A stretch of DNA of 64,000 nt, taken from positions 62,925 through 126,924 of the forward strand of contig CAZSGP010000006.1 in assembly GCA_964606485.1 (NCBI GenBank). Direction: 5' to 3'. Under the pieces are notes generated by a model. The model searched no databases and was not told the origin of the DNA. It saw only the letters and a program-made list of their open reading frames with translations. Source of the stretch: an uncultured Planctomycetia bacterium (lineage in GTDB: Bacteria > Omnitrophota > Gorgyraeia > 2-02-FULL-51-18). This document shows positions 12,901 to 64,000 of this stretch, one piece after another; position 1 is the first letter of the stretch; each line of letters opens with the position of its first letter. The position numbers and the translations under genes are program-made.

Positions 12901-14892
12901 TTTTTTATATTTTTCAAACGGGGACTCTCCGAAGCCCCAAGACTTCTTAAGCATTCTTGCCGCATCCTGGGGAGCGACGCCCCCGCAAGCGGCTAACAAC
13001 AGGGATAGTGCTAAAGCGGAGACACGGTTTATATAGACAGGGAGTCGCGCGCCTTCGCTCGGCGACCGGCTCCGGTCCTTGCGCTTCATATGCTCGATAT
13101 CCTTGAGAATGTTTTGAATCGTGGTTTTTACCGGTGAAGCGTAAAGGCCAAAAAACACCACCATCCCCAGAAGCTGACAAAGAGATTGCTCGGCGCGCTC
13201 CAAAACTTTCTCATCCGCCGCCAGTCCGAGTTTCGAGTTTTCACAGACTTTCACGATATCGGGATCAGACTGTACGATCTTGAGAATATATTCGGTCCGC
13301 TCTTTTTGAATAGCTCTCCATTCCTCTCTGTAGGCTCTCATTTTGCTTCGAACCCAATCCATCCAACCGAGCCTCGCGCCGCGCGACGCCTTCGTATTGT
13401 CGGTAACGACAGAGAAGATAACTTTCAACTCACTTTCCAAAGATTCTTTAACACTCAACCGGCCGCCCTGCGCCGGATACAACACCAAATTTGCTGCCGG
13501 CTGCACATTCCACAAAGCGCTCGGCGCCTGGATTTTTAAAGCATCGAAACGGGCAATGATTGGAGCAGCATTTTTAGGCGGAAGTTGAGATAGGAGTAAA
13601 TTTTCATACTTACGGACATTGGTTTCCGCAAGCACGCGCGGTTGGATAATCTCGCAATCGACCTCTTTGTCCGCAAAAAGCCGTTTCAAATGCTCCGAGT
13701 GAAAACCACCGGCGACGAGAATCGCTTTCGTTTCATTTTCAGATTTCATTTTTGAAAGCGTATTTTTTACAAACACGTGGTCGCGTTTTAAGGTGAGCGC
13801 ATAAAATGTTTTGGCCTTTTTAACGAATTTTTCGTAGCGAGGCTCAAGGTACACAGCGTTCTCAAAACCCTTGTGAAGACCAGAAATCATGCCGTTCAAA
13901 TCGCCGGATATTTTTTTCATCGAAAATTGCTTGGGGTTTTCTCGGATAGCCTTATAGTCGCCTGGCTCTAAATTGAGACGGGTTAGTTTTTGGAGTGTGT
14001 GGAGAGTTTCTCCGATCTCAGACAACCGTCTTTCGTCTGACGTCTGGACAATATTTTCAAAAATCCGATCTTCAAGCAGTGATTTTTCGCGAAGCAGCTC
14101 ATCCAAATCGAGTTTCCGCACGCGTTTAAGGTAATTTTTAGACGCCGTATTATTTTTCTTTAAAACTTTTTCAAGATGCGTCAGCCTGGAAAGCACTTGG
14201 ATTTGTGACAAATCTCCAAATGAAATACCTAGAGACTTCGCCTCCCGAACAAGATACGAAAAATAGTCAGCTGAAAGCATTTGTCCGGAATCAAATTGCG
14301 TTTTATTCGTATCGAATCGAAGCAGTCTTTCATTAAAAATCTTGGCCTTAAGGAAGCTGGCCGTTCGCTCCACCCGCTCTAGATACGCTTCGACGAAATC
14401 GCGCTCTAGTTTTAAATCACGATAAAGTCCGAGCCCTTCGAAATAAAGCGCTTTATCCTCCACTCCCCAAAGCTTGAAAGGCTTGTCCGAAATAAGGTCC
14501 AAGTAGTCCGGCCCTTGAATGGTCCCTTTCTGTAAAAAACTGTCCGCAATCTGCTTCGCTTTTCGACGATCGCCGATCGCTTTTGGTCTCAGATAAGACA
14601 GTGAGTCATCACCGGTTCCCGCTTCTAAAAATACAATCTTAATTTTTTCTTGAGTGATAAGCTCATCAATGGTTTTGGCGATATTTTTCTGCGCGGAAAG
14701 ATTCAAGTGCGCGTCTTGAATGATGTAGATTTTTTTAGTGAAGGGTTGCTTCGCTTGGTGAAAAAAAGAAAGCGGCTCACTACCGGCGGCAAATGCAAGA
14801 TCTTGCGCCAAAAAAGAAATAACGAGTGCAAATGATAGGCACTTTAAAAAGCTTGGGGTTCTGCTTTTTAAAAGATTAAATTTATAAAACAA
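1..14892 (-). CDS. Giant multidomain protein, at least 4,960 aa, 3' end beyond window start. Probable TTG start near 14892 followed by a signal peptide (FYKFNLLKSRTPSFLKCLSFALVISFLAQDLAFA). Domain modules are listed as separate features.
   Basis: Reverse-strand frame (codon first bases at coordinates divisible by 3) is open from the stop at 14947-14949 down to coordinate 1. This was checked codon by codon at 1-960, 5690-5710, 9250-9285, 9710-9755, 13030-13060 and 14830-14950. The ORF track shows only short antisense ORFs in this 14.9 kb, consistent with one ORF lacking an in-window stop. Multiple specific family motifs are present in frame. Confidence 0.8.
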   Translation of the reverse strand, partial: MFYKFNLLKSRTPSFLKCLSFALVISFLAQDLAFAAGSEPLSFFHQAKQPFTKKIYIIQDAHLNLSAQKNIAKTIDELITQEKIKIVFLEAGTGDDSLSYLRPKAIGDRRKAKQIADSFLQKGTIQGPDYLDLISDKPFKLWGVEDKALYFEGLGLYRDLKLERDFVEAYLERVERTASFLKAKIFNERLLRFDTNKTQFDSGQMLSADYFSYLVREAKSLGISFGDLSQIQVLSRLTHLEKVLKKNNTASKNYLKRVRKLDLDELLREKSLLEDRIFENIVQTSDERRLSEIGETLHTLQKLTRLNLEPGDYKAIRENPKQFSMKKISGDLNGMISGLHKGFENAVYLEPRYEKFVKKAKTFYALTLKRDHVFVKNTLSKMKSENETKAILVAGGFHSEHLKRLFADKEVDCEIIQPRVLAETNVRKYENLLLSQLPPKNAAPIIARFDALKIQAPSALWNVQPAANLVLYPAQGGRLSVKESLESELKVIFSVVTDNTKASRGARLGWMDWVRSKMRAYREEWRAIQKERTEYILKIVQSDPDIVKVCENSKLGLAADEKVLERAEQSLCQLLGMVVFFGLYASPVKTTIQNILKDIEHMKRKDRSRSPSEGARLPVYINRVSALALSLLLAACGGVAPQDAARMLKKSWGFGESPFEKYKKTVGLKTDASTKIDIILNDYLKKYDNSDSDIQKVRIDFFDALHDLLENASTSQKREIWNQFFIHWSGLHEEPLKRESLALSASYAMLNVASLLIKETDFSDPTNFYLVGKLFVAFGHIKTKRNIQRSYAEGDLSQSGFQMDKFINDIIIPLSQKKWAEKELTSIFNAVLASRYLAEGMSMGDTSRRWNLTEAAYQMLLTNPLLFSKDQMDELTEAVRQDISGLTDDTIYTQKIRKRAREILHNIAIIRSDGARLAAAEEKMGTIEIVAVTDAQAPTMDSLTALATKNAQHSDFLKTLQNKIDFEKGKLDLKNLRSIIPDEKPEAPLENFPENIDFNLRRVKQMLILNAYANCGSIRGTALSTGLDSQRVSNEIRVEGVDSQASARERIEVNYSSAYLWMAKQEVLQWRELEKMVIIGALYSTGDFRGAAAIRLGIDQRTLYKKLKLYEIDSLSDAEGFLRKTQAALRSRKEKKFIEDVCRYKTKFIQTLTHMGPESIEALYPLVQEKFKADPTLKTNPEFIGWAIAIFSIAAAKTASDKSLDYDSIRTFIGDQNTDPNSLPNEKQIEAALLLLENRALVTMRMSEGKSLSLVLAAYLKMLFGYRVEIHDFNIPLASRNSAVAEAILNRLGFKTASLTETNGAELARKADFIHGTYDQFMFRHMIDRFSLKYFGKSQSSDKKKWVFLDEAEEPLWDEAYEPRVFADPTEEMDEDLKGIYIAVNELATRLLDEGKVKVIWVEEEGQFRRKLDIELDETRRAQLAELSKRDVLQKFYSDPEFPRELLDIAIQARLFYKEGEQYFSTSRAKHSSKWDQKITLRNESTGDRQEHRVIRFFQPFLEIKEGKKVMGEAVARELLTPHYFYRNTLEFSAVIGVLDSKRAAALEALYGATVRQVKPKYPNNRTVIPEEYFLNEKEKIAHFVDAIRVFYETGRPILLNTRSPEEAEMYRDALEAENERQPFLKGGTQPLQPIRVINGRDEVSDALNWNRIGDSFSITITAQVASRGAEIKLDPKLYKPVEAEFRGKKISVAGLVVLSTHYSKSLLTALHLEGRAGRRGKPGVFHFADHIKGNVFLTERVPGELQQYLSTIEGSEFDSKDKVIPMLFELARERALNETIEAQVYFQPLYNRLIDAQTDFATHARIKLSDPSLNRKTRADLINTLKSKSAALVNHVAQAISRKNLDLFNILMLDFEREIKELKKDVEKLSQQAGARLAAWANLIFKYLFYDDLRSRLRGKKMLSDLGFEVIDQEGHIRYKAGYEPPVLKCDLVMIPHGNTYGNSMEVFQGQNEGPLARLDDKGKSQAWRGAQELWQEYQRLLSDGDPGKGYVFLTSPLFRARETASFQIPRLYHLGLKRAIDVELEMRAKEINFGDWGGKKIDELDPAQQKMAQAYKNNSALIAPRNGESFPEFMVRVRKFIDEINQRYPGKTVFVYGHGMFTRVLKVLLKTQDVETTRDYIHFQQLRFNRGSPNPIQSGARLAANVLSDSRNRMIGAIQPLIDELSKTEQTAGFSGKPTVYALLGHQDLKAFEAFAQMWNKRFEAGDVIPIVITGGIGRATQDLKDLMLRNYAYSFKSRDRVIFKRLLKNEQSTESELIEFILTHTFNMPTEFQGKPVIYRDTTPTPNTVENLKMSRHLIAQAVSDYKLDHTAVSLVTTPPHNRRAFLTALKVFEEQIKNEKWSLIAEPVYPPDLNGFFDDAELERFVGFALGYPKRLHPKNQWSEFDRIVEYGTKASPDLIFERFDAGEWTPARTRALREEEFNQFLRQREGIAATPRFRVDTSALNDEELSKKAADRFIELAIQKLRSKKDAKFFVALAGGDTPVKFYKLLTKKEYYTRFKPGEMQRIVFFLGEERGPGADEPGANEAMVRSCFNFLSIKGKDRAIDQPKFFSFYDGNWVDVDAQKFKELVASYEIKRREVLAENGNRFDLTIWGIGSQANMGAIFPGSELLKKRYDPGYAVTGNLMSLTPEAFFDSKHAMVMMSGRHKRKPLYRVLKDLRSEPERKQYWLTQAPARLLWKHPEPTRVDFFVDKEALRWPQVELTRTLAGSDGRPFQDHAGQVIETRFKVDLRQGPSNQAPLAVLVHGFVGRGTWENQLANFPDDWTVAAPHRGRVPLAIRKMGSEQILNYYVGNVAHTIRWVSKEYPNRPIVLVGHSDANVLIDTLFSQPEIYQDVIDKISVEIGSNPFSFKHRDHAIRNILDFLKSASAYFGPVRKILEPMLTVLKWPVSERLPWPVVALREKALERYSGLFSQLASYAPAAATFFVAPFWGSFTQGKYFFKMLKELGVPEELHYAISQDYENMSTRDVLEELHAILTYPSDMHEKANAVRRKNGTKKLIVTSTHDRLVDIHNLREDARAMSTPLEIIDEGSQEHSLLRSHLPQYLDEWNQVVVDFVRGARLSGGVMLDEQLIRFEKWMLDLFSLSGEPQRLSDEGYYWYFLSGERVYDFLILSRLVNQAKRVMTGFNPDRVLYFRANRPHGNRSRLVLYLQPLKIRTKLVKTQPDGTVFLRIDLINDAKEPLARMILSAKPSRVDEKFDESPSKKNLDSLFKRDTHLMGQMPSALEPIDRGPITKRMRWNFSQESLDAQKILNGVMDENWARQMIGLRILARASNFFAGGYRISKVENLHFGVNLEVGEKLVALAAVANNEIKRDEYRNQSLLPMDVAVFRPSQNIEARLEQSAKDLAWWWDNIETPENERWWQNPSVEAGAVWDHMWHQFNVAMEVNRQKLCREGKIVRVEGDRIFDEPVETVVRARIWKIAENLKAEGPAPDAHKINFSNLLRAAIFGTDAERDAAISELQKALLIKPNLFDDQVKEVWVSLAKEVIDPGIVRRAVIAIQTWVKGAQSTPENNLIQLLEHFIRMGFPEASGIARRLLVYVQKVQSETGGARLSLNVSDTDTERAKRAQDVIKFYKEYQNQYRPFGSGGALFDMANFEHIYRSFLAIEKRYGCLKDKRLLDFGAGDLRVGIFAEYVFGMKVSSIEISKMLSKKSEALLENARAKKIAQPDFKFYPETDAFNISWSDADLVFYYYTEPEGDEAVHFRSKFLEKRLQMKNGSLICFLVLTGMFEELPGLRPDKEFLIERSFFSSEKYTEVRHYNAEWYLACFRKDKALEVLPAAARLSGITLGTLAVLAVAASIANILYKKWQKSQEAEIRREAFIHRLERNFKAKLKAKIKSFRNKIPMTAIFRLAEETVNEELRLASKENNHRDLRLLRGILAKMELLNAEWRGNDHEDEEDVIKKLCQNGRIGNTLRSPQGIELIRTIYRMRERIDFGETRGARLVQKSQETEVEVRPGSSEDDLTLGQMIRILIILVSVPMNTYMERLYFSSTPFFYIWPKVFSDRGLAYYENLSKENQKTLVFVTPHELLHNPPPFIVYAARDPFWILGAAFLMAWAIGTGYLRLVLEEKGYLKLKSALDLAIWFYVWAAVLAAVDVWNYGGTFSWIHLGDPVVLSAADSAMYAGQLITAGVAATFAYIHLEKKFKSNGARLTEKPSHLISNPISEWEFGLGPDGHPAVRSPLQRAEDELRIKNEFRDRLEAGFAKKNRWFSIGFYQDTPSNGRVRFFAKTRKEEIREYSYQVVGAGHLREVSDALARGLSRSGVSRTMALAGHFYRVDFQLVPGNGAFGDEIQIKVTGSFSRDSEAMFLRILEEHQKGFLAIIHSNLANRREDFREFKQTLEEKYDRFFRAEPELKNFIDEIHSDAGITEPSDEKEFLAYLRYLSERIKILIQNSAGDSQLALSRTKQLIRVEEDHKFASSAAIAIITKIESLQKSGKSVNIVFATGNTMVQMLDYMARFSQDIDWSRVQAYHLDEYAGLSPSHPSSFAAFLRKHLFSRVKIPEANIHYIDGSQWNVPGHLERYMKNLKDNGGADIGILGVGLDGHLAFNEPPRFSGFNQSMQIVDLNESTIAANEKDYPEIRKAPRAITMGMADIAEFKNIFFMANGEKKAEIVARGLQGPVTESVPVSMLQRMDSVIYMLDEPAASKLKFSMAGARLAEVETLRFLEGVLMFWLVIESIVLHEVAHAYAALKAGDVSAWMAGQISWKPWRFMSGASALTLVITGLLGVPATLFFAVFQNKLFNPGNGENKIALAKIALAGPIMNLILYGVFAGLYLATGYWIFQTVAHINLVFGLANMLPLGPLDGQKVFRALVPDRFMRFFDYGFIFSGALLLLGLIIYDVSTSVGRVAGGDFERTVLGSKNNNPFALGIFAMTSLVCGVAMRPWFKRIYTDLSRSLGKDSRSGDRFEFELEFANVDGKQPRPYVFKKFITVSKQTILPPLESHHLKML
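950..1720 (-). other. Glucosamine-6-phosphate deaminase/isomerase (NagB)-like domain
   Basis: IVFATGNTMVQML ... HLDEYAGL ... GADIGILGVGLDGHLAFNEPP (verified at 1201-1260) ... APRAITMGM ... DEPAASKL. This is a close match to NagB family motifs (GsTp, DEY, GiGenGHiaFNEP, AiTmG, D.aAa.L). Confidence 0.7.
1750..2350 (-). other. Second TraB/GumN-type GxxH region (YQVVGAGHLREVSDALARGL)
   Basis: VVGAGHL matches the TraB/GumN C-terminal signature. Confidence 0.35.
3700..4100 (-). other. Class I SAM-dependent methyltransferase-like domain
   Basis: Motif I KRLLDFGAGDLRVGIFAEY, followed by acidic and hydrophobic motifs typical of the Rossmann MTase fold. Confidence 0.4.
6150..6660 (-). other. alpha/beta-hydrolase-like domain
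   Basis: VLVHGFVGRGTWENQ (HG oxyanion motif) and IVLVGHSDANV (nucleophile-elbow-like GHSxA) within about 80 residues. Confidence 0.4.
6950..7500 (-). other. 6-phosphogluconolactonase/NagB-fold domain (first copy)
   Basis: FFVALAGGDTPVKFYKLL and FFLGEERGPGADEPGANEAMVR resemble Pgl/DevB motifs (alSGGsTP ... gDER..p.d..SN). Confidence 0.5.
8570..9100 (-). other. Histidine-phosphatase (phosphoglycerate-mutase) fold-like domain with variant first motif (IPHGNTYGN instead of RHG)
   Basis: LVMIPHGNTYGNS ... GESFPEFMVRV ... TVFVYGHGMFTRVL pattern matches the RHGx..N / GES / HGG layout of the family, but the catalytic Arg position is Pro. Confidence 0.35.
9650..11250 (-). other. SecA-like DEAD-box motor domain embedded in giant ORF
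   Basis: In-frame motifs: VTMRMSEGKSLSLVLAAYLKMLFGYRVEIHDFNIPLASRNSA (compare SecA [37 protein letters not shown]); KADFIHGTYDQFMFRHMIDRF (SecA DITYGTNNEFGFDYLRDNM); ASRGAEIKL (SecA AGRGTDIxL); LHLEGRAGRRGKPGVFHF (SecA motif VI LRGRSGRQGDPGSSRFY), verified at 9711-9753. Confidence 0.6.
13500..14800 (-). other. TraB/GumN/TIKI-like N-terminal domain shared with the two other giant ORFs (motifs IYIIQDAH and ILVAGGFHSEHLKRLF)
   Basis: Alignable by eye with the N-termini of the 44746..50247 ORF (VWLIEDIH; VLVVGGFHTAGLVNDL) and the 58437..64000 ORF (FIVGGYHAPSLQKLF). The [IV]VG[GA]xH..L pattern resembles the C-terminal GxxH motif of the TraB/GumN family. Confidence 0.45.
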
Positions 14893-15073
14893 AATAAATT
14901 TCACCCAATATTTTAAATTAATCTGAACATAAAATTTAACAACGGGTTAAAGTAAAAAGTGCTCGGAAAAGTATGCCTAATCTGCTCAGTAAAATCAAAT
15001 TCGGTTAAAAAAAATTTTTAATCAGAAGTAAGTGAATTTAAGCACAAGTGACTCATTCAAAAAAAATATTGGC

Positions 15074-33150: not shown

Positions 33151-36100
33151 TATTCTCATCCAGCAACGCTCGGCTTTGAGCTTTTTCTCCGTCATAGACC
33201 ATACGACCATTAAAGTCGACGGCGCCTTCTTCAACTTCGAGCGTGCTTTTAGCGACGATGGGCGCGGTATTGTTAAGAGCGCCATTTGGCGAGACTGATT
33301 CCTGTAAATTTGGCAAAGATAAGTTTACTGTCGCTACAGAGCCCTGCACAGAACCTTCGGCTGCTTTTTCTGTGGAGCTCTCTTCGGATGTCTTTGACTC
33401 CGGATTTAAATCTTTCTTCTCTTCATCTTTCTTCTTATCTTCCGAAGAATCGATGAGGGATTCATTTTCTGAAAGTTCAGTCGATTGAATAGAGCTTGTT
33501 TGAGCGGGCTCGGAATTTGTCGAAAGCACCGGACTTGTGGAAAGAGAGCTTTCAATCGATCGCTGAGCCGGCTGTGGTTCAACTAAAGCGGGTTGATTCT
33601 GGCTATCTTGAATCCCCAAGTCTAGCGATGGGCCGGTGGGCGCCGCTGATGGAGCGGTGAGTTTTGTGTAGGAAGTGAAGGTGTACAGCGCTCCGTTAGC
33701 ATCTAGGGTATCGTCTATCCCCACCACAAGATTGTCAAACGGCACTGCCGCCTGATCCGTTGAGAGCTGAACCGTTTTGGAATCTCCATCAATGGTGACG
33801 TCTCCAAACGTCGCAAAATCGGCAGTGTTGTATGTGAGAGTCGAGGTTCCTGTTCCGTCCATAGTCCAGGAACCCGAGCCGCGAGTCAGCGAACCGCTAT
33901 TTCCGAAAGTCACGTTCCCAGCAGTCGTCATATTGGGATTATTCGTTGTTAAAACGAGAACCGCGTTGGTCACTGAGAGATCGCCGTTTACATCCAAATC
34001 TCCAAAACTTCCATCTACGACAAAATTACTAGCACCAAATGCCGCGGCAAGAGAAAGATTATTAAAAGCTTGGCTATTGGTTTTCATCTCTCGGTCCGCA
34101 AAGGAGTTTCCACCCCCTAATTGCACTGTGCCTTGTCTGGCTAAAAAGGTGTCTGACACAAACCAGCTGTTACCAATCACGAGTGAATTATTTTCAGCGG
34201 CATTTACATCCAAAATACCGGACGTTAGCGTCATGTCATAGCTTGTCGTTAAAGTGTCTTCCAAAAGAAAAGTAGTTTTTCCACCGGTCGCGCCATTAGT
34301 GTCATTAAAAACCACATTTCTAAAAGTTGCGCCACCCGAGGTGATGGTCTGTGTGCCGGAAGTTTTGTTGAAAGTAAACGTGCCGCCGCCATTATAAGTA
34401 CCACCCGTTTTGGTGAAGTCGCCGGTCAAGCTAATGTCATGAGAACCATCACTAAACGTTCCGTCCGTTTGCACATAATCATGGGTAATGCTAAAGTCAT
34501 TATAGGTTTCGGTTTGGCCCCCGCTCCCGCTAACGGTGAAGTTGTAAAAACTATTTCCCGTGCCACGGATTTCACTCACGCCGGTCCCATTAAAATTAAC
34601 AGTGCTAGTACCCGCGTTAAAAGTTCCTTGGTTGGTAAAATTTCCAGAGACGTTTATGGTGTTCGACCCTGCATTCGCCGTAGCACCGGATTGAATGCCG
34701 AGCATCCGAGTGGTGACGTTGCCGCCCGGCGTAAAGGTATTTCCGGTCCACACAATCAAATCGTATCCTGCGGTGAGTGTCAAATCTGACCCTGAGACCG
34801 AATAAAGAATGTCCGCATCATTCGCGGAACCCTTAGCGGCACTCAAGGTGGCATTTGTAATCACGCTTCCTGTTTCTGAGCGAACGATGACACTATTTTG
34901 ATACATGTCGAGACCAGTCACCGAGGACCCTGCTGCCACCGCAACAGTACTTCCTTCAAAACTCATCATGTCGCTGTTCATAAAAACCAGAACCTTGTCG
35001 CCACTTTGCAAGAATTTATTTAAACGGAAAAAATAAGCGCTGTTCGCGTCAGTGGTTACATCCGAGGCTGCCGACGCACCATTCACAAGCACCGACACGC
35101 TCACTCCCGCCCCTAAACCAAAAATTCCAAAACCCAAATCCGTATTAGCGTGCCCATAGACCACCGACTGCCAATCTAGATAAGGTCCAGCGATGTCTTC
35201 AGCCATAGTCCAGGTGCCCGAAAAATTGAACCCCGTGAAATTTGCCGCCTGTTTCATTTGAGCGGAGGTTAAGCTTGTAATATTCGCAATGTCTCCGTCA
35301 TCATCGGTATCGGTGTGCCCTGGGTTTACATCGGAGTCCCAGTAATTATTGGAGTAGGACCCGGCGTTATTCGTACCGACTAAGCCTCCTGACCCATTCG
35401 ACACGACGCTGGTTGTAAATGAAGTGTTGATCGTTCCGCTATTAATTCCGACCAGGCCGCCTGCGCCCCCAAGATTCGTCACGTTTCCGGTTGAGTAGGA
35501 ATTTGTAATGGTTCCTGAATTATTGCCCACCAATCCTCCGCCACCGCCGTTAAAACCACCGCCCACGCTGGCCGTCGAATAAGAATTTTGAATGGTTCCG
35601 ACGTTGTTGCCGACTAGCCCACCCTGTGCTCCCGTAACTCCGCCGGTTCCGCTAAAAATTCCAGTCGTAAAAGTATTTGAAATCGTAAAACCTTGGTTGT
35701 CACCGACAAGTATTGCGGAGTTACTCTGCGCTGAGACGTTGGCATTGACAAGCCCCACATTAGAAATTGTTTGGGAACTAGCTCCGGATGCATAACCAAT
35801 CAAGCCAACATAGTTTGTGAATGGTCGGTTAATATACAGATCAGAAATGACGTGATTACTCCCGTTGAAAGTCCCGGTAAACGGCGTGGTGTTGTCTCCA
35901 ACCGGTAGAAAGCCCGCCGTAAATCCGCTTCCCCACAAGGAGGTGCCCGCAGCATTGATATCATTGGCCAGCGCATAAGACGCAGATAAATTTCGGCTCA
36001 TCGCTTGCAAGCCGTACACATCGTAAATCGTGTAGGGATTACCACTCGTTCCAGCACCCGTAAAGCGGTTAAACGTTCCGCTGGAAACCGAAAAACTCCC

Positions 36101-44745: not shown

Positions 44746-46800
44746 TCAAGCGCTAGCCGCTAACTGCTGATAAGCAAGAATGGACTGCCAGTACCCAAAA
44801 GCGCTCCTCAGATATTTTTTTAGATCATAATATCCATTCAACATTTCTTTCGGAGGGTTGCTTCCAAATACAAGCTTCAACACTTCCAGGCGATCCTCGG
44901 GCGTGCGAACTTGGCTCATCCAAAACTGAAAACCAGCCTCAAGACGCAGGGCTACTTTTTCTGCAGGCAGTGTTTTCACGCGGCTGTCCATCCCGGCGGC
45001 AATACAAAATGTGTTGTCGCCGAGTTTCTCAAGAATATCTATCGTGTCCCGATAGGGGCTCGCGGACTCGATGAGCTGGCCTTGAAACTTTGGCAGGGCC
45101 TCCAGAGAACTCTTGAGCGCTTCTTTTTGGGAATTCGGTCCCGGATCCAATAAAATAAGCCAATAAGCGCTTGGCATCCCAGAAACAAGCCGGGTAAGTT
45201 CGCGCGTTTCAAGAAGAGAGGCGTCTACGATGTTGACGCGACGCTGACCCGCTGCTTCAATCGGCAGCGGCACAAAAACCGGCCAATTGGAGAGGTTTTT
45301 CTCCAAATCCAAAATTTTCAACAATCTTGTGAGCCGCGCGCCCTTACTATCTTTATCGGTTTTCATTGCCCCGCGCGGTTTTGTTTCCCACGGGTAAGGA
45401 TTGGCGCCGAGTCGGTTTAACGTTTGTGCGGTCTTAAAAATTTTAAGTTTGGCATCTTCAATCCGCATCAATAATTCGCCGATTTTTTGCTCATTTTCCA
45501 TCTGTGATTCTAAGCTTTCATTGGGACTGCGCCAAACTCCCCCTGGAAATATCTTTTGAAATTGCTCCAAGCTCTGATCCAGACGCTCCAACTCCTTTAC
45601 CAAAAGATGCATCGATATAAAAGCTTGGTTGTAAGCCGCGGCAAACTCACTGCGCGCTATTTGAACGCGAAGCTCGGCCTCCTTGACATTGGCTTGGGCC
45701 AAAGCCAAATCCGCCTCAAGTGGCGCGCCAAACGGAACCTTCAGCTGAAACGTTTGTTCACGACTCACAGCGCCATAAGATTCGAGCGGCCGGCCGGCGA
45801 GCTCGTGAAAAAATGGCCCCGGCATGTCACTGGGTCTAGGATTGGTTCCCCAAAAAGCGCCTATATTGAGAGACGCTCTTTGAGTGCGCTCGGCAAACGA
45901 GTAAGCGTGTTGCGCGGCCTCATAATCCCTTTCGGCTGCTAAGATCGCGGGGTTTGCCGCGGCGGCTTCTTGAAACGCAATATTACCGCGCCTCAAGATC
46001 GCCACCGCATTGTTAAAGCTGGTTTCAAAATCCAAAGAAACACTTATCTCCTTTCCTTGATCCAGCGGTGAACCGGAAAGCAGCATGAGTATTTTAGACT
46101 CTAGTTCATTGGCTTCTATATGAAGTTGTAAGATGTCGGCCTGCAACGCGGGGATTTCTCTTTGCGCTTTTTGCCTCGCTTTCTGGTTTGCCGGAACAGC
46201 AAGTTGAGTCAGCCGTTTTAAGGAAACCTGCCGCCCTTCCAAAATCTTTATTTTTTGACGTGTCAAATTAAGTTCAATCAAAAGATCGGCCGCTTGGTTT
46301 TTTTGAGCTAAAACGGTTTCCTGTAAACGGTGAAAACTCGCCAAAACCAATTGGCTCTGAATAAGGCGCGCTTCTTCGTCGGCACCCAGCAGTTTTCGTA
46401 AAAGCGCTCCCGCAAAATCGGCAGCTAAGGACAAACCGTTACTCCCGTAGATCGCCGACAAATTAATAGCCCCACTTGGGGTCATATAGGATACCGCCGA
46501 ACTAACAACCGGTTTATTGCCCTCGAACCCCCCGGTTATTTCGATAGCCCATCCGGGCTCCAGTCTTCCCTGCGCGGCTTCCTGTCGCCAAACATCAAGT
46601 CCCGAAAGTTTGACGTTTAAATTTTTTTCAATGAACGGCCAAAGATCATCGACACTCAAAAGAATCTTTCCGGGTTTGAACTGCTCTGGTATTTGCCGCG
46701 CTGGCTTAGGCGAAATAGGCTCCCAAGGCGCGCTTGCGCAGGACGGAATTATTACAACCGTGGCAAGACTCAGCAGCGACGCCAGTGCAAATGGTTTGCG
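44746..46800 (-). other. NodT/TolC-like outer membrane factor module preceded by its own lipoprotein-type signal peptide (AHRKPFALASLLSLATVVIIPSC) inside the 1,833-aa ORF
   Basis: The positively charged n-region + hydrophobic core + Cys follow immediately after GDGARL (verified DNA at 46795-46830). Downstream coiled-coil repeats (LAQKNQAADLLIELNLTRQKI..., EAELRVQIARSEFAAAYNQAF...) are typical of OMF proteins, and NodT-family OMFs are N-terminally lipidated. Confidence 0.5.
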
Positions 46801-49800
46801 ATGAGCGAGTCTTGCGCCATCACCTTGAACCAGTCTTAGCAGTTCCGACGCTAGTTTCTTTTCTTCATCACTCCAATTTAGCGAAACAAGTGTTGCGTTT
46901 GGTAAAAAATTAACATAATTGGAAGAAAGTGTCATTTTTCCGTCTAGCCCAAGAGTTAAAAACTGCGTAAGATTTCCTGCAAATTCACCGTCTAACGCAG
47001 CAAAACCTGATTGCATTTCCCACTTCCAAATCCTCCTTAAATTTTTAAGTGCCGCTACCCGAATCGCTTTATTCGGGTCTTTTGCGGCAGCGATGAGGTA
47101 GTCCGAAGCGGAAATGACTTTTTTGCGACCAATAAAATTTATGGCTAACACACGGTAATTGGTTTCAATGCCCGAACTGAGGGCAAGCTCTCCTGCATAA
47201 GCAATATCCAGATACCATTTTTGCAATCTCGCATTCTTTCCTTTAGTGGCTTCATCCAATCGGAAGATATTCTGAATCACCCTCTCAAATTGTTTCGCGT
47301 CGCTCGCTTTGAGCGCTAAGGACGCCCGATCATCTTCTTTATCCCAATCTGAGATCACCGAAAGCGCGGGATCTTCTGGGTTAAATTTTTTTATCGGGAG
47401 ATTCCGTCCTTCTTCGATCCAGCTCCGCAAATTTATGGCAGTTTTTTCGGGACCGTCAGACTCGATCAAAACCATCGCGTATTGATGAAGAGCTCCTTTC
47501 ATGCCAACCGTAACGGTATACATGTCGTTCTGGGCGATCTTTCTTAAAATGGCGTTATTGACGCCGTCATGAAATTCCTTAGTCGAAAGTAATTGGATTA
47601 GGACTTGGCGGGCTTGCTGTTTCTGCTCTTCATAAGAACGGACAAGCGCCGGTGTTTTTTCGGGAGGTTGCCGTTTGAGAAGTTCGAGCAAGCCTTCCGT
47701 GTAACTTTCTGTGGGATTCGCTAAAGCCGACTGCAATACCGCCTTAAGGACGTAGTAATCTTTTTCATTTTCCAAGCCGTAACGAACAAATGATGTTGCG
47801 CGGTCAGCGCCGGCAATTTTTGGCAAAGCGAGATAAGCGGCGTATCGCGCAAAAAGACTCGGATCTTCCTGAGTCATTTGAGCAATTCGTATGGCGGCAT
47901 CCTTTCGAAGCGCTTCTGAAAAAATATTTGCTTGGTCCGCTAAAGCTGCCTTTCTTAAAGCTTCCGCGCTCATAAAGCGAACCAGATCATCCGGGTCGCT
48001 CAACCCGTATTGAATCAAAATCTGGATGTCAGCCTGGTTTGGTCCGATCATCACGAGCCACTGCGCAGCCAGGGCCCGCAAAATCCTCACGCCTTCCCTA
48101 TTCCAAAAACCATACGGGTCATTTCCGGAGTCAGGCCTCAGCATTTCATGCGCCGTAAGAATCCCTTCAGCTTTCCGGTTAAAAATAAGGTGCATCATTG
48201 CAACATAACGCTCCGCCCAAGGCCTTGATCTGTCTTTCAAGACCGCAAGCGCTGAGGGTTTAAAATCAGTGTCCTCGTAGGCCTCAATCTTACCGATAGC
48301 GCCAGAATTTTGGAGCTTCTCAAGTTCTTTGTAAGTCATTTCGTTGCATAGCGGACAAGAATCCATTTTGGATACGGGGCTCATGATTTGGATACGCGGA
48401 AGCTTTCCATAATCCTCGACCGGAATAATGTCCGCTGTTCTTGAAACGGCGGATCTGCCGTTTATGATGGATATCTCAGAGGTCATTCTTCTAGCAACCT
48501 GATACAAATCGTCTTCGGTCGGAACAGCAGAATCAAAATTTTTGGAAAGACTCGGCAGGCTAAGCTCGGATTTGGGAGGCGTTTGAGTTTCTTTTGCGCT
48601 TTGAATCGAACACGCGGGCAATGCCAAAATCAAGGCGCCGGCTGCCGCCATCAAGATACCGCCATCTGGCTGCCGCGTGACAAGTCTTGCGCCCAGAGGT
48701 GTATCCAATCGAACCCCATCGGGACTCATTGATACGAGCTGAATAGAAGAAACGGCTTCGGCGCCAGGAAGAAAACGACGCGTCAGCACTGTCGGCGCGC
48801 TGACAGTCGATGGGCCATGATTTTGAGAATAAATTTTTGAATTTCCGATAGGATTTATCTCAATAATTTTTTTTGAACTTTCATTTTGATCCAACAAACC
48901 CAAATACTGCTTCTTTAGCAGGTTTAAATCGTAACCGTTGAACACCGCGGCGCCAAACATCGCATAAAGCATTTCGGTCATACGGGCCTGAATCGCGCGG
49001 CGGCTCTGACTGTTGAGAGCCCGGAATTCATAGAGACGCTTGGAATCGAGTTTCTCAAGCTTTGGCCTTAAAACCGTGACATTCAATCCGCGAAGCCTCA
49101 AATCGTTCACAAGGCCCGCCGTATGAAACCCACCCACCACTAAAACGGCTTCCGGAGATTTGCGGCGGCGCATTTGGGCCAAAAGATTTTCCGCCATCGG
49201 CTTTTCTCGCGCCACAACACCTTCATAGAAACACAAACAGGCTTTGAGACGAGCTTGAAGCGACTTAAATTCGCTTTCCGAAAGAAAATGGTTTGGATTT
49301 TCAAGACTTGCTATTCTAAAAACATCTTCACGAGACGCTTCTAGCGCCATAACTCTTTCAATACGTCTAAGCCTGCGCACTGACTCGAGCGCACGAAGCT
49401 CATCTGTGGACGACGCTTCTAAAAGAAGCATCCGCTCCGACAGCCTTTGAATTTCATCGGCAACATCTTCCGCTAATACGCCCTCAGGGAGAATATTTTT
49501 TTCAAATAGAACACTAAACCTCGGCGCGCTAAAACCGGTTCCCTCAAGCTTATGCAGAGCTTGCTTCAAATCCTCAAAAAATTCTTTGCCGGTCGTTGTC
49601 TCAGGCCGGTCTAGGGCATTCATCCAGCGGATCACTCCCGAGGATAGCGTTTCATTTTCCATCGCACTAACCATTTTTGAGAATTTTTGAATTTGCGGGT
49701 TGAGCTGGACACCTTCTCGTTTTAAGCGCGCGTAGACTTTCCAGTTATGGCTATAAAGTCTAGGGTCTTCGACGCCCCGGATTTCAACTTCAGCCTCAGT

Positions 49801-50247
49801 CGTAATCGCCGCATATTCTGCGGCCGAAATTTTAGATTCGCGCAGCAGTTCAAAGGCCGCATTTTTTCGGATTTCCGTATCCGGAAATGATTTGAGAAAT
49901 GAAATTTCAGGTTCACCCGAAGCGCCTTCGATGCCAATCAGGCTTTTAGGTTCATTTTCAAGAATGGTTTGAACAATTTGAGCAATCTGAATCTGCCCCC
50001 CAAGGCTTGAATGGATATCTTCAATTAACCATACGCTCGGCTGATTCGGAGATTGGCTCGATAGATTCTTGCCGCCTACTTCCAATGAATATGCAAAATT
50101 TTCAATACAAAACACCGCTACTATAAGACTCGTAATAAATTTAAAATAAAATGGCTTACTAAACATAAATATCTCCAAAAAATAGCAGTATCCCTCGCTA
50201 ATGCGGGGATTAAAATGAACGGATTCCCGCGGTGGCGGGAATGACAA
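44746..50247 (-). CDS. Giant multidomain protein (1,833 aa by track; likely true ATG start about 50166, MFSKPFYFKF...). Domain order: signal peptide, TraB/GumN-like N-domain, internal lipoprotein-type signal peptide, HEAT-like repeats, second internal lipobox signal peptide, C-terminal NodT/TolC-like outer-membrane-factor module
   Basis: Shares N-terminal domain with the 1..14892 ORF (VWLIEDIH, VLVVGGFHTAGL). Contains G-A-R-L three times. The first 27 track codons (TTG start) read through GC-rich hairpins, an unlikely coding region. Confidence 0.8.
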   Translation of the reverse strand: MSFPPPRESVHFNPRISEGYCYFLEIFMFSKPFYFKFITSLIVAVFCIENFAYSLEVGGKNLSSQSPNQPSVWLIEDIHSSLGGQIQIAQIVQTILENEPKSLIGIEGASGEPEISFLKSFPDTEIRKNAAFELLRESKISAAEYAAITTEAEVEIRGVEDPRLYSHNWKVYARLKREGVQLNPQIQKFSKMVSAMENETLSSGVIRWMNALDRPETTTGKEFFEDLKQALHKLEGTGFSAPRFSVLFEKNILPEGVLAEDVADEIQRLSERMLLLEASSTDELRALESVRRLRRIERVMALEASREDVFRIASLENPNHFLSESEFKSLQARLKACLCFYEGVVAREKPMAENLLAQMRRRKSPEAVLVVGGFHTAGLVNDLRLRGLNVTVLRPKLEKLDSKRLYEFRALNSQSRRAIQARMTEMLYAMFGAAVFNGYDLNLLKKQYLGLLDQNESSKKIIEINPIGNSKIYSQNHGPSTVSAPTVLTRRFLPGAEAVSSIQLVSMSPDGVRLDTPLGARLVTRQPDGGILMAAAGALILALPACSIQSAKETQTPPKSELSLPSLSKNFDSAVPTEDDLYQVARRMTSEISIINGRSAVSRTADIIPVEDYGKLPRIQIMSPVSKMDSCPLCNEMTYKELEKLQNSGAIGKIEAYEDTDFKPSALAVLKDRSRPWAERYVAMMHLIFNRKAEGILTAHEMLRPDSGNDPYGFWNREGVRILRALAAQWLVMIGPNQADIQILIQYGLSDPDDLVRFMSAEALRKAALADQANIFSEALRKDAAIRIAQMTQEDPSLFARYAAYLALPKIAGADRATSFVRYGLENEKDYYVLKAVLQSALANPTESYTEGLLELLKRQPPEKTPALVRSYEEQKQQARQVLIQLLSTKEFHDGVNNAILRKIAQNDMYTVTVGMKGALHQYAMVLIESDGPEKTAINLRSWIEEGRNLPIKKFNPEDPALSVISDWDKEDDRASLALKASDAKQFERVIQNIFRLDEATKGKNARLQKWYLDIAYAGELALSSGIETNYRVLAINFIGRKKVISASDYLIAAAKDPNKAIRVAALKNLRRIWKWEMQSGFAALDGEFAGNLTQFLTLGLDGKMTLSSNYVNFLPNATLVSLNWSDEEKKLASELLRLVQGDGARLAHRKPFALASLLSLATVVIIPSCASAPWEPISPKPARQIPEQFKPGKILLSVDDLWPFIEKNLNVKLSGLDVWRQEAAQGRLEPGWAIEITGGFEGNKPVVSSAVSYMTPSGAINLSAIYGSNGLSLAADFAGALLRKLLGADEEARLIQSQLVLASFHRLQETVLAQKNQAADLLIELNLTRQKIKILEGRQVSLKRLTQLAVPANQKARQKAQREIPALQADILQLHIEANELESKILMLLSGSPLDQGKEISVSLDFETSFNNAVAILRRGNIAFQEAAAANPAILAAERDYEAAQHAYSFAERTQRASLNIGAFWGTNPRPSDMPGPFFHELAGRPLESYGAVSREQTFQLKVPFGAPLEADLALAQANVKEAELRVQIARSEFAAAYNQAFISMHLLVKELERLDQSLEQFQKIFPGGVWRSPNESLESQMENEQKIGELLMRIEDAKLKIFKTAQTLNRLGANPYPWETKPRGAMKTDKDSKGARLTRLLKILDLEKNLSNWPVFVPLPIEAAGQRRVNIVDASLLETRELTRLVSGMPSAYWLILLDPGPNSQKEALKSSLEALPKFQGQLIESASPYRDTIDILEKLGDNTFCIAAGMDSRVKTLPAEKVALRLEAGFQFWMSQVRTPEDRLEVLKLVFGSNPPKEMLNGYYDLKKYLRSAFGYWQSILAYQQLAASA
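50190..50242. repeat. Two adjacent GC-rich palindromic hairpins (ATCCCTCGC-TAAT-GCGGGGAT and ATTCCCGC-GGTG-GCGGGAAT) in the leader of giant ORF 2
   Basis: Perfect 8-bp stem at 50223-50242; imperfect 8/9-bp stem at 50190-50210; located between the stop of the small upstream ORF (50252) and the likely ATG of the giant ORF (about 50166). Confidence 0.55.
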
Positions 50248-50251
50248 TTTG

Positions 50252-50635
50252 TTATGAGTGGAGAATTATTTCAGGGGGGCGAAAAGTAGAGCGGGCTAAG
50301 TAAAAGGTATTACTCAGCGCATTGCTTTCCAGCAATTGCGTTTCCAAACTAGCTAAATTCTGAGGGGTGGCACGTAGCGTCCAATCACTTCCCCCGCCCG
50401 CAGAAGACTTGGTTTGACGTTCGGCTGCAGAAGCGTTATCCATGGAAACTTTTCCGGAATTTTCTTTCGAGACCTTCGTCTCGGGCGGGGCGTCCGGACT
50501 CATCATCGAGCACATGTGAAACGCGCGGTTTCCGTTACAAGCGGATTTTTCCTGCGAGGGCTTGATAAACGACCCTAGCGGTAAAACCCACAGAAGTACA
50601 GAGACCGCGCTAAAAAATCCAACAAATCGTTTCAC
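50252..50635 (-). CDS. Small secreted protein of unknown function (signal peptide, Ser/Ala-rich)
   Basis: 127-aa ORF with typical signal peptide MKRFVGFFSAVSVLLWVLPLGSF, co-directional and immediately upstream of giant ORF 2; no recognisable family. Confidence 0.4.
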   Translation of the reverse strand: MKRFVGFFSAVSVLLWVLPLGSFIKPSQEKSACNGNRAFHMCSMMSPDAPPETKVSKENSGKVSMDNASAAERQTKSSAGGGSDWTLRATPQNLASLETQLLESNALSNTFYLARSTFRPPEIILHS

Positions 50636-57254: not shown

Positions 57255-57881
57255 TTAAGCCGCTGGACAGCGGTCCGCCAAGTGAGACGCATCGTTTATA
57301 AACACAAGTCGAGTGCGTTTGTCTTTTTCTTCAATCATCGTGAGACTCGTGTTATCAATCTGTAAATTTAAAAGCAAATTATCAAAATCGGCCTTCAGCC
57401 AATTGGACAAGAGCGCCGTAATCACGCCGCCGTGCGTCACAATCAAAACATTTTTTCCGTGGTTTGATTTTAAAATCTGATTCACGCGCTTTGTCACACG
57501 GTTTCTAAAATTTTTTAAGAGCTCGCCCTTCGGAATTTTAATCGAAGAGGGTTTTTTGAGCCATTTCTGATACCCCAGGTCATACAACCGGTCGACTTCC
57601 TCGGGGGTTTTGCCTTCCCAAATACCCAAATGAATTTCCCGGATCAGCGGGTCTTTGATCACCGGAATTTTTTTGTGGTGACTAATCGCAAGTGTCGTGG
57701 AGTACGCGCGGCCAAGATCGCTCGAATAAATTTTATCGATTTTAATTTTTTTAAGACGTAAGCCTAACTGCTTCGCTTGAAACTCGCCCTTTTTCGTCAA
57801 ATGCGAATCATGATGCCCTTGAATGCGCCCGAGATCGTTGTAGGCGGATTCAGCGTGGCGAACAATTATTAAACGTGTCAT
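57255..57881 (-). CDS. Histidine phosphatase family protein (phosphoglycerate mutase-like)
   Basis: LIIVRHAESAYN and LIVTHGGVI motifs. Confidence 0.7.
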   Translation of the reverse strand: MTRLIIVRHAESAYNDLGRIQGHHDSHLTKKGEFQAKQLGLRLKKIKIDKIYSSDLGRAYSTTLAISHHKKIPVIKDPLIREIHLGIWEGKTPEEVDRLYDLGYQKWLKKPSSIKIPKGELLKNFRNRVTKRVNQILKSNHGKNVLIVTHGGVITALLSNWLKADFDNLLLNLQIDNTSLTMIEEKDKRTRLVFINDASHLADRCPAA

Positions 57882-58436: not shown

Positions 58437-61400
58437 TTAGGCGGAGGCGAGCACGTGGCGCTCGGCAAGCCGCGCAGCCGAAACGGCTTCGTCGACGCTC
58501 ACCTTAAAGGCTGCCTTGAGAACGATGGTTTCTATCTGTGAGAGTTCCAGACCTGCCTTAACGGCGATCCTATAAAGAAATTGATTATCAATAAACGTAT
58601 TCGCGCTAATAACTTTCCACGCACTAATCGTCGAGTCACTAATACGACCTTCTGAATTATGCACCGCAATGGCCAACTGATCCAAAGAGTAGTAAGCAAA
58701 TACCTGCCCTTCCGAAAGCTTCTCAACTGGCAGGTACAAAACCTTTGAATTTGGATCAGGGTGAGTTATTTTTTGAAAATTATTTGTAAAACAAATCTGG
58801 TCTTCGAAGGCTTTGTCGCCCGGGTTTAAAATTTCACCCACCGCTTTCTTGAAAATTGGGATCTTATCCCCTCGGACACCAAAGCTTTCGGCATCCTCTA
58901 GCATTTTGTTTTTGTATGTTGCCAAATAAGCGTAGGCCCTAGCCCTAAGAACTTCATCGGACGAATTCAATACCGCATTTAAAGGAAGTTTGGGGGAGCT
59001 GAGTTTAATCCGAAGCAAGGCCAGTGCTCTTAATTCAAGATTCGTTTCCAAAGTTCGATCATTGTCCGCTCTTAGCGCATCCAAATCAAAACCGATGGTT
59101 AATGGTTTTGTAAGTGTCTCAGGAACTCTTTGTCCCAACGCATTTGACACTGCATTTTCCATAGTTTGCAGAGCAAAATCCGCCTGACGCGCGGACAAAA
59201 CCACGAGTGAGCTAGGTCGTTTCTTTGCCGGATCTGCAAGTTCAATGGGCAAAGCTTTAGGATCGCTTTGAATGCGGATTTGAATCTGATTTCCCTTTTC
59301 TTCAAAAACCACAACAGATGTTTTTTCTTTTAAGGTGACCGCAACGGCTTTACCAGCCACCAAATCTCCAAAATGCTCAAATACCCGCTGACTAAAACCG
59401 GACACGAGTTCTGGATAAGCCAATTCCGCCGCCAACTTATTGACGTACCGCTGAAGATCGCCCGGGCTAAAAGGCTTTGCTAGCGCTACTGTGTTAATGC
59501 CAAGAGCTGATTTAAATTCAGGGTTGCTTGTATCCCCTGAAATAAAAATAACAGGTACTCGCGAAGAAGTTTGAATGCCCATCGCCCCTTGGCGCAAAAC
59601 ACCGATGACGTCCAAACCCATGTAAATCTTACCTTCGATTTTTTTAGAATCCCTCGTATTGTTATCGGTAATTATTAGATCGAATGGCTCTGAATTTTTA
59701 AGGGCCTCTAGCGCTTCGGATGAATGTGCAACCTCTACGATATCGCCATCTTTCACGCCCATTCTCACAAGAGTCATCCTCATAATCCTTCGAAGAGGCT
59801 CTTCATCATCAACAATTAGCACTTTTTTAAACGTAACAGCAGGTTTTGGCGCGCTTTCTATCGGCCGCTCAACAGAGGGCATTGCCGGCACCACCGGCGA
59901 AAATGGATTGCTCGAATTTTTTCTTTCAAGATTTCTAAGCGCCGAGGAAGCCTTGATAGCCGAGCTCACAATCGCTTGATAAGATTGTTGGCTCAGAACC
60001 TCAGCGGGCATCATTGAATACTCAAGAAAACCGAATCCCGTTAGGGCACTCGCCAGAAGGGCTAATTGAATCTCGGCGTCTCGAACACCGGAAAGCTTCT
60101 GTATTAATTGTTCATTCTGCACGAGAGCACGTCTGTACAAAAGAAGCAGCGGCCCTACAACATCTCTTTGATTTTCATAGGTCTCGCCCATCTCAAGTTT
60201 CCCAGAGAGAATGCTCATTTCTCCGATAATTTCACTTAACTGTGCCAGTGGATTGTCAAAATCAAGCACCAAAAACTTTCTTCCTTCCGCTTCACCAAAC
60301 GGATAATCAATACCAGAATTCAAATAAAACGTTAGGCTGTGAGAAATGGATTGAATGGCGCTAAACTCCCTAAGGAGAAGTTCCCGGTCATCAGCACTAA
60401 GAGGTTTCTCCGCAATCAAGGCGAGACAATTCATCGCTTTATTGGGAAGCTCGTATTTTCCAGATCCCCCCCTATTCCTTCTCAAAGTTTCGACAATCAC
60501 TCTTTCGCTCAGATTGACTTGAAGATCCGCCTCCCTTCCAATGTTTTTATGTATAAGATTCGATAACTCTCCCAGCTGGAACTGAGCCTCCTCCATTACT
60601 GAATCATAATTTCCTCCGCGATTTTGAGCAAAAGCAAGAATGTGAATGGGTGTGTCCAATTGGGAGACGATATGACTGAGCCTCTCCGAGAACTCTTTCA
60701 AAAACACCGATTTTCTAGCCTCCTCATGACTAAAACCCTCAGGCTTCTTGAACGAATAAGTCGTTTCCGAAAGCCGCGCGGCGGATTGAATGGACTGAAT
60801 TTTTTTTCGATTCGTTTCCTGGTACTGCCTCCAAATAAACCCGGCAAGCCTGTTTATTTTTGGATCAATTTCTTGTGCCGATATAAAAGTTTGTGGAACA
60901 GTTTTTTGGGGAGCATTCATGGCTGTCAAAATTAATGCGATGAGCGTTTGAGTGTCTAAGTCTTTAATGTCTTCGTAGCGCCGGTATGTCCAATCGATCC
61001 GGCTTATTTGATTGTCAAAATATAGAACAAAAGGAACACTCAGGCTCTCCATTTGGCTAACCCACATATCAGTGGCCTTCGAATCTGTTTGGCTTGAGTT
61101 TATGTTGCCGATGATTTTTTCATGAAGCCGTTTCATTTGACCATAGATATCAATATCGGTTTTTTCAAGAACCCTTAAAAAGTCAGCTGGGTTTTCATTC
61201 ATATCGGCCGACAGAATCGCAATCATAGCCCGCTTGACGCGGAGGTTAAACTGAGTTTTCAGAGCTCGTTCATCAGTAAGCGGTTTTGAAATCTCAGAAA
61301 GCCGCGCGGCGCTTACCACTTTTGACTCTGCAAGAATTCCCATCTCCACTAAGAGCTTGGGATTGCTCTCTTCTCCGACTCCTCTGGAATAGCGCTGTAC

Positions 61401-64000: not shown

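Follow-up and report, generated by a model that had tools for sequence, protein, structure and literature searches.

What kind of protein carries a DNA-binding helix-turn-helix (HTH) module and a phospho-receiver domain in a chain whose head domain is shared with other giant genes of the same locus? The question is raised by gene D, which lies on the minus strand at the right-hand edge of the window, the whole stretch of 64,000 nucleotides analysed here (contig CAZSGP010000006.1 of assembly GCA_964606485.1, positions 62,925 to 126,924, from an uncultured bacterium placed in the Omnitrophota). Gene D belongs to a protein family built on a common frame, namely an N-terminal signal-like helix, the head, a variable cargo joined by the motif [AS][GA]AR[LM][AS], and a conserved tail. 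We read gene D as a head-motif-tail member in which the motifs may be the processing sites of a polyprotein and the head its likely protease; judging from sequence, we give this reading a probability of roughly 0.4.

Within the window, gene D (58437..64000) is represented by its last 1,853 codons and a stop codon at 58437-58439, and the frame is free of stops up to 63998. The ORF (open reading frame) listing puts its start at a GTG at 63821. The first-pass annotation had rejected that GTG as the true start and described the frame as open to the window edge, encoding the family motif FIVGGYHAPSLQKLF upstream of the GTG. Translation in frame from 63998 indeed stays open, and the motif lies at 63843-63887. 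All 1,853 gene D residues are matched at 100% identity by a database protein, P0001, which has 2,264 residues in total, and thus gene D runs 411 codons past the window edge, with no in-frame stop just beyond it. On that side the sequence reads to MKKTRKILSIILL..., and the protein starts with MKKTRKILSIILLNTFIIEYCISIKPVQASVV. By eye, residues 1-29 form a signal-peptide-like helix that is the sole hydrophobic segment of the protein. N-termini across the family, also judged by eye, show a K/R n-region, 12-15 hydrophobic residues and a c-region ending in A-x-A, and are like cleavable Sec signal peptides. Gene D is, on this evidence, a real gene for a 2,264-residue protein with a predicted DNA-binding module and a predicted phospho-receiver domain.

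Four giant ORFs, all on the minus strand, are found in the window: A (1-14946), B (32225-37615), C (44749-50247) and gene D. Giant A runs off the left window edge, its full-length form being P0004 with 5,725 residues, and giant C corresponds to P0005 with 1,806 residues. A head of about 480 residues is common to A, C and D (BLASTP E 5e-14 for D vs A and 7e-16 for A vs C), and a three-way alignment shows the conserved elements IQDAH, EAG, GVED..LY and VGG[FY]H. The earlier proposal that gene D shares its head with giant paralogs holds for A and C. Giant B, considered as a further paralog, was rejected; it has a TPS (two-partner secretion) domain and a C-terminal beta-propeller, no similarity to the head, and no ARL tripeptide.

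The three window heads were combined in a profile, which matched 8,632 of 1.84 billion cluster representatives at E<=1e-3, and 3,232 at E<=1e-30. The best 150 of the 8,632 matches serve for the family counts of motif, tail and residue conservation given below. Among these 150 members the head stands at or near the N-terminus, and protein lengths range from 0.5 to 7 thousand residues, with a maximum of 7,011. In a scan of species-representative genomes, relatives came mostly from Omnitrophota metagenome-assembled genomes, with some labelled Planctomycetia and a few Elusimicrobia, and several copies occurred per genome. The family is probably of Omnitrophota origin.

The junction motif joins the cargo modules. 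GARL is the commonest 4-mer after the head in the 150 members, with 558 occurrences vs 16.9 expected, and GARM is found 88 times vs 3.0 expected. For the window proteins individually, observed and expected counts of GARL are 3 vs 0.06 in gene D, 10 vs 0.18 in A, and 3 vs 0.08 in C. The sequence logo reads [AS]-[GA]-A-R-[LM]-[AS], and the flanks carry no information. The first copy falls at a median position of 575, just past the head, and the median spacing between copies is 255 residues. Motif density per 1,000 residues is 1.98 in family cargo vs 0.073 in ORFs of the upstream flanks (60 family loci), a difference of about 27-fold; inside the window there are 21 matches in 8,668 family residues vs one in 12,688 other residues. 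From one motif site to another the codons for Gly, Arg and Leu vary freely, which places the constraint at the protein level; an origin of GARL at the DNA level, as a recombination site or repeat, was rejected on the same ground.

The motif also occurs at the edges of homology blocks and of domains. In 14% of cases, blocks of internal BLAST homology between paralogs have an edge no more than 5 residues from a motif, vs 2.5-2.7% for randomised positions, and internal motifs are kept in the aligned partner in 43% of cases vs 4.4% identity for random 4-mers, about ten times background. In giant A, the SecA-like and His_Phos_1 domains have motifs on both sides, and motifs come immediately after the NagB/Pgl domain. 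Both AlphaFold2 (AF2) models, of the head and of the first cargo module of gene D, give a predicted local distance difference test (pLDDT) score below 50 to the motif-bearing stretches. In the head model this applies to gene D residues 494-535, which take in the GARF and the GARL that follows it; the next GARL (residue 553) is outside the 535 residues modelled. The first-pass annotation had counted three GARL motifs in the first 120 residues after 63821, of which two stand (63677 and 63575); the copy that precedes them is a GARF, at 63725. The third GARL of gene D comes later, at 62384, and AARL copies begin at 61310, 60782 and 58478.

In three places in A and C, a complete lipoprotein-type signal peptide follows immediately after a GARL: at C 48693 (GARL-VTRQPDGGILMAAAGALILALPAC), C 46818 (GARL-AHRKPFALASLLSLATVVIIPSC) and A 13053 (GARL-PVYINRVSALALSLLLAAC), all on the minus strand. 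These resemble free N-termini, and they are rare family-wide. The broader idea that most modules open with signal peptides was rejected, a hydrophobic stretch following 2.9% of motifs vs 1.5% of random positions. In C the second lipoprotein-type signal stands ahead of an OEP/TolC-like domain, an order also seen in OprM-type lipoproteins.

At the other end of the chain, 103 of the 150 members end in [AS][AV], with the consensus ...LFALPPLLRVPIDALLRAARLALRMVAQAA-COOH. The tail comprises about 60 conserved residues ending in ...ARLAxxxxxx[AS]A-COOH, and the last motif often lies exactly 13 residues from the end. A hidden Markov model (HMM) of the tail, built from the 103 other members with the window proteins excluded, matches the C-terminus of gene D at E 3e-5 (a whole-protein value) and that of full-length A at E 1e-9, while matching no other ORF in a search of the 89 ORFs of the window. 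Since the tail HMM matches its C-terminus, gene D is a complete head-to-tail member. The ending of complete members, -[QRG][AS]A-COOH, recalls ssrA and tail-specific-protease recognition tails.

What the head might do is suggested by its predicted fold. No Pfam or NCBIfam model covers it. An AF2 model computed from 20 sequences, with a pLDDT of 82, contains an insertion of about 290 helical residues that splits the core, and the predicted fold matches that of the TIKI, TraB, erythromycin esterase and RRSP proteins, a shared alpha/beta fold with a parallel beta-sheet core. Eight head residues, D71, H73, N75, E101, E154, Y159, R431 and H455, are kept in 146-150 of the 150 members; for D71, H73, E101, E154, R431 and H455 the figure is 147-150. 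The catalytic set of the superfamily consists of two His and two Glu with a nearby basic residue, the TIKI proteases having a conserved Arg near the site, and the distance from the first His to the second Glu is 28 residues in both Bcr135 (His85/Glu113) and RRSP (His3902/Glu3930) (PMC6254334). In the head, H73 and E101 are likewise 28 residues apart, as a match of pattern rather than a superposition. In its acid-x-His, the Glu 28 residues on, the Arg and the second His, the head recalls the 2His/2Glu plus Arg site of RRSP and Bcr135, within the superfamily of TIKI, TraB, PrgY, ChaN, Ere (EreA-C, Bcr135/136) and RRSP proteins; it differs from these proteins in its helical insertion and in standing at or near the N-terminus of chains several thousand residues long. 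The head is a candidate protease because this hydrolase-like residue set is kept in a TIKI/RRSP fold.

The cargo of gene D consists of four parts, an XRE-type HTH module, two uncharacterised modules, and a module bearing the receiver (Table 1). Module 1 holds one solid HTH, probably a second, and two units unverified as HTH. The first-pass annotation had placed two XRE-type HTH segments here, at about 63300-63375 and 63030-63100. The former corresponds to unit 1, which scores 32.6 bits against Pfam HTH_3 (PF01381; cutoff 23), matches the sequences of SinR and PbsX-type regulators in the PDB, and is modelled with a pLDDT of about 80-88. The latter, unit 2, could not be upheld: Pfam returned no HTH family at E<=10 for it in either the gene D protein or P0047, its pLDDT is below 40, and hhalign gives 4% probability for its alignment with unit 1. 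Unit 3 instead is probably the second HTH. It scores 18.2 bits against HTH_31 (threshold 27, E 0.003), and hhalign aligns it with unit 1 over 60 columns at P about 1e-3 and 22% probability. BLAST among the four units found nothing significant, and the AF2 model of the whole module has a mean pLDDT of 50.5, with confidence in unit 1 only. As in XRE/Cro-C1 regulators, unit 1 passes the HTH_3 cutoff and aligns with SinR and PbsX-type domains; unlike them, it heads four tandem helical units that make up a 390-residue module of a giant protein, and neither unit 2 nor unit 4 can be recognised as HTH.

The only relative found for module 1 is a segment of another family member, residues 3079-3528 of P0047, with 29% identity over 456 residues (E 5e-44). 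In P0047 only units 1 and 3 give weak HTH matches, unit 3 matching HTH_3 at E 0.008. Both copies of the module close with GARLA. A metagenome scan for module 1 recovered the P0047 locus alone.

The receiver domain of gene D scores 33.5 bits against Pfam Response_reg (PF00072; gathering score 30.2), covering residues 1393-1519 in the numbering of the window protein and positions 1-110 of the 111-position profile. In an alignment with H. pylori CheY1 (3h1g; E 2e-7), IVDD pairs with VVDD, IITD with LITD, FISG with MITA, and AKPF with VKPF. The acidic pair is kept, as are the phospho-acceptor Asp and the Lys; Ser stands where Thr is canonical, and about 8 residues are inserted after the acceptor Asp. 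The earlier description of a full CheY-like receiver with D-D...D...T...K spacing therefore stands as to the domain, with its DD, D and K, and fails at the Thr. Like CheY-like receivers in general, the domain passes the gathering score and has the acidic pair, acceptor Asp, Ser/Thr and Lys; unlike them, it sits in the middle of a 764-residue module with uncharacterised flanks, carries the insertion, and has no partner kinase nearby. A cognate histidine kinase, which the first-pass annotation proposed looking for, does not adjoin gene D anywhere within the window. The only window ORF with an H-box and a G2-box (SHELKTPL, GGTGLGLS), at 21643-22761 on the minus strand, is kinase-like by motif alone and lies 36 kb away. 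It is overlapped by a 232-residue ORF at 22751-23449 (minus strand) that may encode its response regulator.

Table 1. Features of gene D and the heads of paralogs A and C. Residues are those of the full-length gene D protein; coordinates are those of the window.
Feature	Residues	Window coordinates	Strand	Evidence or remark
Signal-like helix	1-29	beyond window	-	
Head	~50-495	63747..64000 (C-terminal part, 412 to ~495)	-	includes VGGYH, 63867-63878
Post-head linker	~496-556	63564..63725	-	GARF 63725, GARL 63677, GARL 63575
Module 1, HTH block, four helical units of ~80 residues	557-949	62385..63563	-	
HTH unit 1, XRE/Cro-C1 HTH		63210..63374	-	Pfam HTH_3, PDB sequence matches, AF2
Unit 2, conserved helical unit, HTH identity unsupported		63027..63101	-	
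Unit 3, probable second XRE-type HTH		62718..62882	-	below threshold
Junction motif GARL(A), closes module 1	950	62373..62384	-	AF2 pLDDT < 50; same place in P0047
Module 2, 354 residues, no recognisable domain	954-1307	61311..62372	-	no Pfam or NCBIfam match; no relative among 150 family members
Junction motif AARL(S)	1308	61299..61310	-	
Module 3, 172 residues, no recognisable domain	1312-1483	60783..61298	-	Pfam; 150 family members
Junction motif AARL(S)	1484	60771..60782	-	
Module 4, 764 residues, receiver domain between two uncharacterised flanks	1488-2251	58479..60770	-	
CheY-like receiver (REC) domain, DD/D/S/K	1804-1930	59442..59822	-	Pfam and 3h1g alignment
Family C-terminal tail, ends AARLAERHVLASA-COOH		58440..58622	-	tail HMM
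Last motif AARL and final 9 tail residues	2252 to end	58440-58478 (motif 58467-58478)	-	
Head and first GARL of paralog A		13327..14871	-	
Head and first GARL of paralog C		48643..50166	-	

How might these parts work together? The motifs would be junctions between modules that are used as proteolytic sites, a cut probably falling after the Leu or Met and before the small residue. Processing sites are suggested because the motif is short, has unconserved flanks, sits in linkers where shuffled modules begin or end and is conserved far above background, and also because it is confined to head-bearing proteins and now and then has a complete signal peptide right after it. The head would be the most likely protease, since its predicted fold includes the site-specific endopeptidases TIKI and RRSP. 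On such a scheme gene D may not be one 250-kDa response regulator at all; its polyprotein would give rise to a DNA-binding protein with multiple HTH units, two uncharacterised proteins and a receiver-domain protein. The products could act in the cytoplasm of the producer, in its periplasm, or in a host cell.

A precedent for the arrangement exists in the MARTX toxins, which release effector modules by cutting small-Leu-small sites in unstructured linkers between effectors (PMC2900308; PMC6315884). Gene D and its relatives share with MARTX the giant chain, unrelated modules of effector size, and unstructured linkers with a short Leu-small site, as an analogy and not a homology. In MARTX the protease domain is part of the same chain; in gene D the candidate protease is the head, which has a different fold and an N-terminal position. 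The putative cleavage site of the family differs further in having Arg at P2. Pfam and NCBIfam detected no InsP6 (inositol hexakisphosphate)-activated cysteine protease domain, no RTX repeats and no type I secretion features in D, A or C, and on these grounds the gene D family is not a member of MARTX.

Several observations weigh against processing at the motifs by the head. The case for cleavage is drawn from sequence statistics, and head and motif are linked by co-occurrence, not by a mechanism. The last motif, 13 residues from the C-terminus, lies within the conserved, helix-like tail, where a binding element would be more expected than a cutting site. Module boundaries do not all have a motif, the HTH module of P0047 missing one on its N-side. 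The Sec-like N-terminus, as judged by eye, fits badly with HTH and receiver products that would act in the cytoplasm of the producer. As to the head, its likeness to the TIKI/TraB/Ere/ChaN/RRSP proteins is at the level of the fold, with no sequence match above threshold, and its first acid is Asp, not Glu. Foldseek ranks Bcr135 first for the head model, without significance (best E 0.046). Comparison with the curated models of the clan (TraB_PrgY_gumN, Erythro_esteras, Cofac_haem_bdg) gave only sub-threshold hits, to DUF5694 (E 0.05) and to Cofac_haem_bdg (E 0.17, one of 20 heads), and comparison of the head profile with PDB sequences gave only coiled-coil noise. The same fold also includes esterases and haem binders, which are not proteases.

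Two explanations would leave the chain uncut. The protein may be a multi-domain scaffold tethered by its N-terminal helix, with the motif having a structural or docking role in the linkers, where for instance the head, the tail or a partner protein might bind it. A motif inside the conserved tail is readily accommodated in this way, for cutting there would free just a 9-residue peptide, and the literature on Omnitrophota by default reads such giants as multi-enzyme proteins that stay uncut. Giant C, too, is readable as a multi-pass protein, its two hydrophobic stretches after GARL serving as transmembrane segments that leave HEAT inside and OEP outside. However, processing sites typically look like this motif, which is five residues long, has unconserved flanks and is placed in low-confidence linkers exactly where shuffled blocks begin or end; complete lipoprotein signal peptides right after the motif suggest new N-termini; and the head keeps its full hydrolase-like residue set in 147-150 of 150 members. 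We regard a tethered scaffold as a serious, if somewhat doubtful, alternative. It is improbable, by comparison, that gene D encodes one very large transcription factor or response regulator whose XRE HTH domains bind DNA under the control of receiver phosphorylation, with the head as an accessory. One ORF does contain both an intact DD/D/S/K receiver and one HTH that passes its threshold. Yet gene D seems unlike a classical response regulator of receiver plus output, because its HTH and receiver lie in distant, separate modules delimited by motifs: the HTH is N-terminal to the receiver, and more than 850 residues, two uncharacterised modules and three junction motifs stand between them. The HTH module of P0047, moreover, occurs with no receiver-domain match (Pfam, E<=1e-4), no kinase gene is adjacent, and the protein starts like a signal peptide.

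A variant of the polyprotein reading moves the site of action outside the producer. Modules of a secreted effector polyprotein would act in a host or prey cell, by analogy with MARTX. Cargo in gene D and its relatives is of cytoplasmic type (HTH, receiver, SecA-like, His_Phos_1, NagB/Pgl, Pkinase, DOT1, PPDK_N and methyltransferases), and action in a host or prey cell is proposed because of this character of the HTH, receiver, kinase and methyltransferase domains; HTH, REC, Pkinase, methyltransferases and PPDK_N need ATP, S-adenosylmethionine, DNA or a phosphodonor, which the periplasm lacks. Sec-signal-like N-termini occur family-wide, gene D has no other hydrophobic segment, relatives of the head fold include the effectors RRSP and HopBA1, and Omnitrophota have been described as host-dependent episymbionts or predators, some of whose long proteins are read as secreted effectors. 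Against this, no delivery machinery is linked to gene D, whose neighbours are housekeeping genes, the signal peptide was judged by eye, and the lipoprotein and TolC-like modules of C make sense in the envelope of the producer itself. We consider the secreted variant unlikely. Its boldest form is a long shot, namely that a TIKI-fold head cuts its own Sec-exported chain at GAR[LM]|[AS] and that the released products reprogramme the host or prey cell; were it true, gene D would supply that cell with a DNA-binding protein and a phospho-receiver protein, and the family would be what MARTX effector delivery is elsewhere, in an Omnitrophota version whose cargo comes in thousands of combinations. An artefact, whether a chimeric assembly, a decayed pseudogene or a fusion of neighbouring genes, can practically be dismissed. 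The cargo modules of gene D are almost without database relatives, as such an artefact might be, but the 6.8-kb frame is open, the head, motif set and tail are intact and match a family of thousands, and the identical protein is recorded on a 164-kb contig.

The other giants bear on what the head carries. The first-pass annotation described it as a domain that elsewhere carries secreted cargo. This is apt for C, which has lipoprotein-signal and OEP modules; A has cytoplasm-type enzymes, and B is headless. Giant A contains SecA DEAD-like plus P-loop, His_Phos_1 and NagB/6-phosphogluconolactonase domains, each set off by motifs as a separate module. Secreted proteins are not the main cargo of the head, which in A and in other relatives bears many enzymes of cytoplasmic type. 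Right after the GARL at 891, giant A also encodes, at 400-891 on the minus strand, a membrane module with an HEVAH motif and several hydrophobic segments; it scores 26.4 bits against Peptidase_M50 (site-2 protease), below the threshold of 27.2, and may represent a second protease in the family. Besides the His_Phos_1 domain of giant A, the window has a free-standing His_Phos_1 gene at 57255-57881. Immediately upstream of giant C, a 127-residue ORF (50252-50635, minus strand) has a signal-like N-terminus and no Pfam match. The neighbouring genes are of housekeeping type and include a hexapeptide transferase, a histidine phosphatase, MTHFR, ABC transporters and ZnuA, with RlmN-like, CcdA-like and thioredoxin-like proteins recognised from their translations alone.

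Giant proteins of Omnitrophota have been described as multi-enzyme or repeat scaffolds with receiver domains among their common cargo, in two preprints (West-Roberts et al. 2023 bioRxiv; Nielsen and Lui 2026 bioRxiv) and one further paper. In these works cleavage of the giants was merely speculated upon, via C39 or S8 peptidase domains. Cytoplasm-type cargo behind a signal peptide was also seen in proteins of at least 10 thousand residues and left open (Nielsen and Lui 2026 bioRxiv), and missing information on cleavage points blocked the structural analysis of West-Roberts et al. (2023 bioRxiv). The family of gene D is like these long multi-enzyme proteins in its Omnitrophota relatives, its mosaics of cytoplasm-type Pfam domains, its signal-peptide or transmembrane start and its largely unique sequences; it is unlike them in length, those proteins having at least 10 thousand residues, gene D 2.3 thousand, and the best 150 members 0.5-7 thousand. 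A term search of the two preprints found no mention of GARL, a "head domain" or TraB. We found no paper on a "GARL motif" or on Omnitrophota together with polyproteins, in a literature whose coverage was incomplete, so that an earlier description is possible.

The regulator cargo of gene D is by itself modest news, receiver domains being known cargo; the frame together with the junction motif is a testable organisational lead. For the long multi-domain proteins of Omnitrophota, neither an organising principle nor a cleavage point or shared module is, to our knowledge, on record. The frame that gene D exposes, with its hydrolase-like head, its junction motif of five residues and its C-terminal tail, is common to at least 8,632 cluster representatives. 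A motif left uncut would still be a strong family signature lacking an explanation. If it is a processing site, these proteins would become computationally divisible into real functional units, the head would become a candidate for a new site-specific protease, and the presence of HTH and receiver domains behind a signal peptide would become a testable question of action in the producer vs the host.

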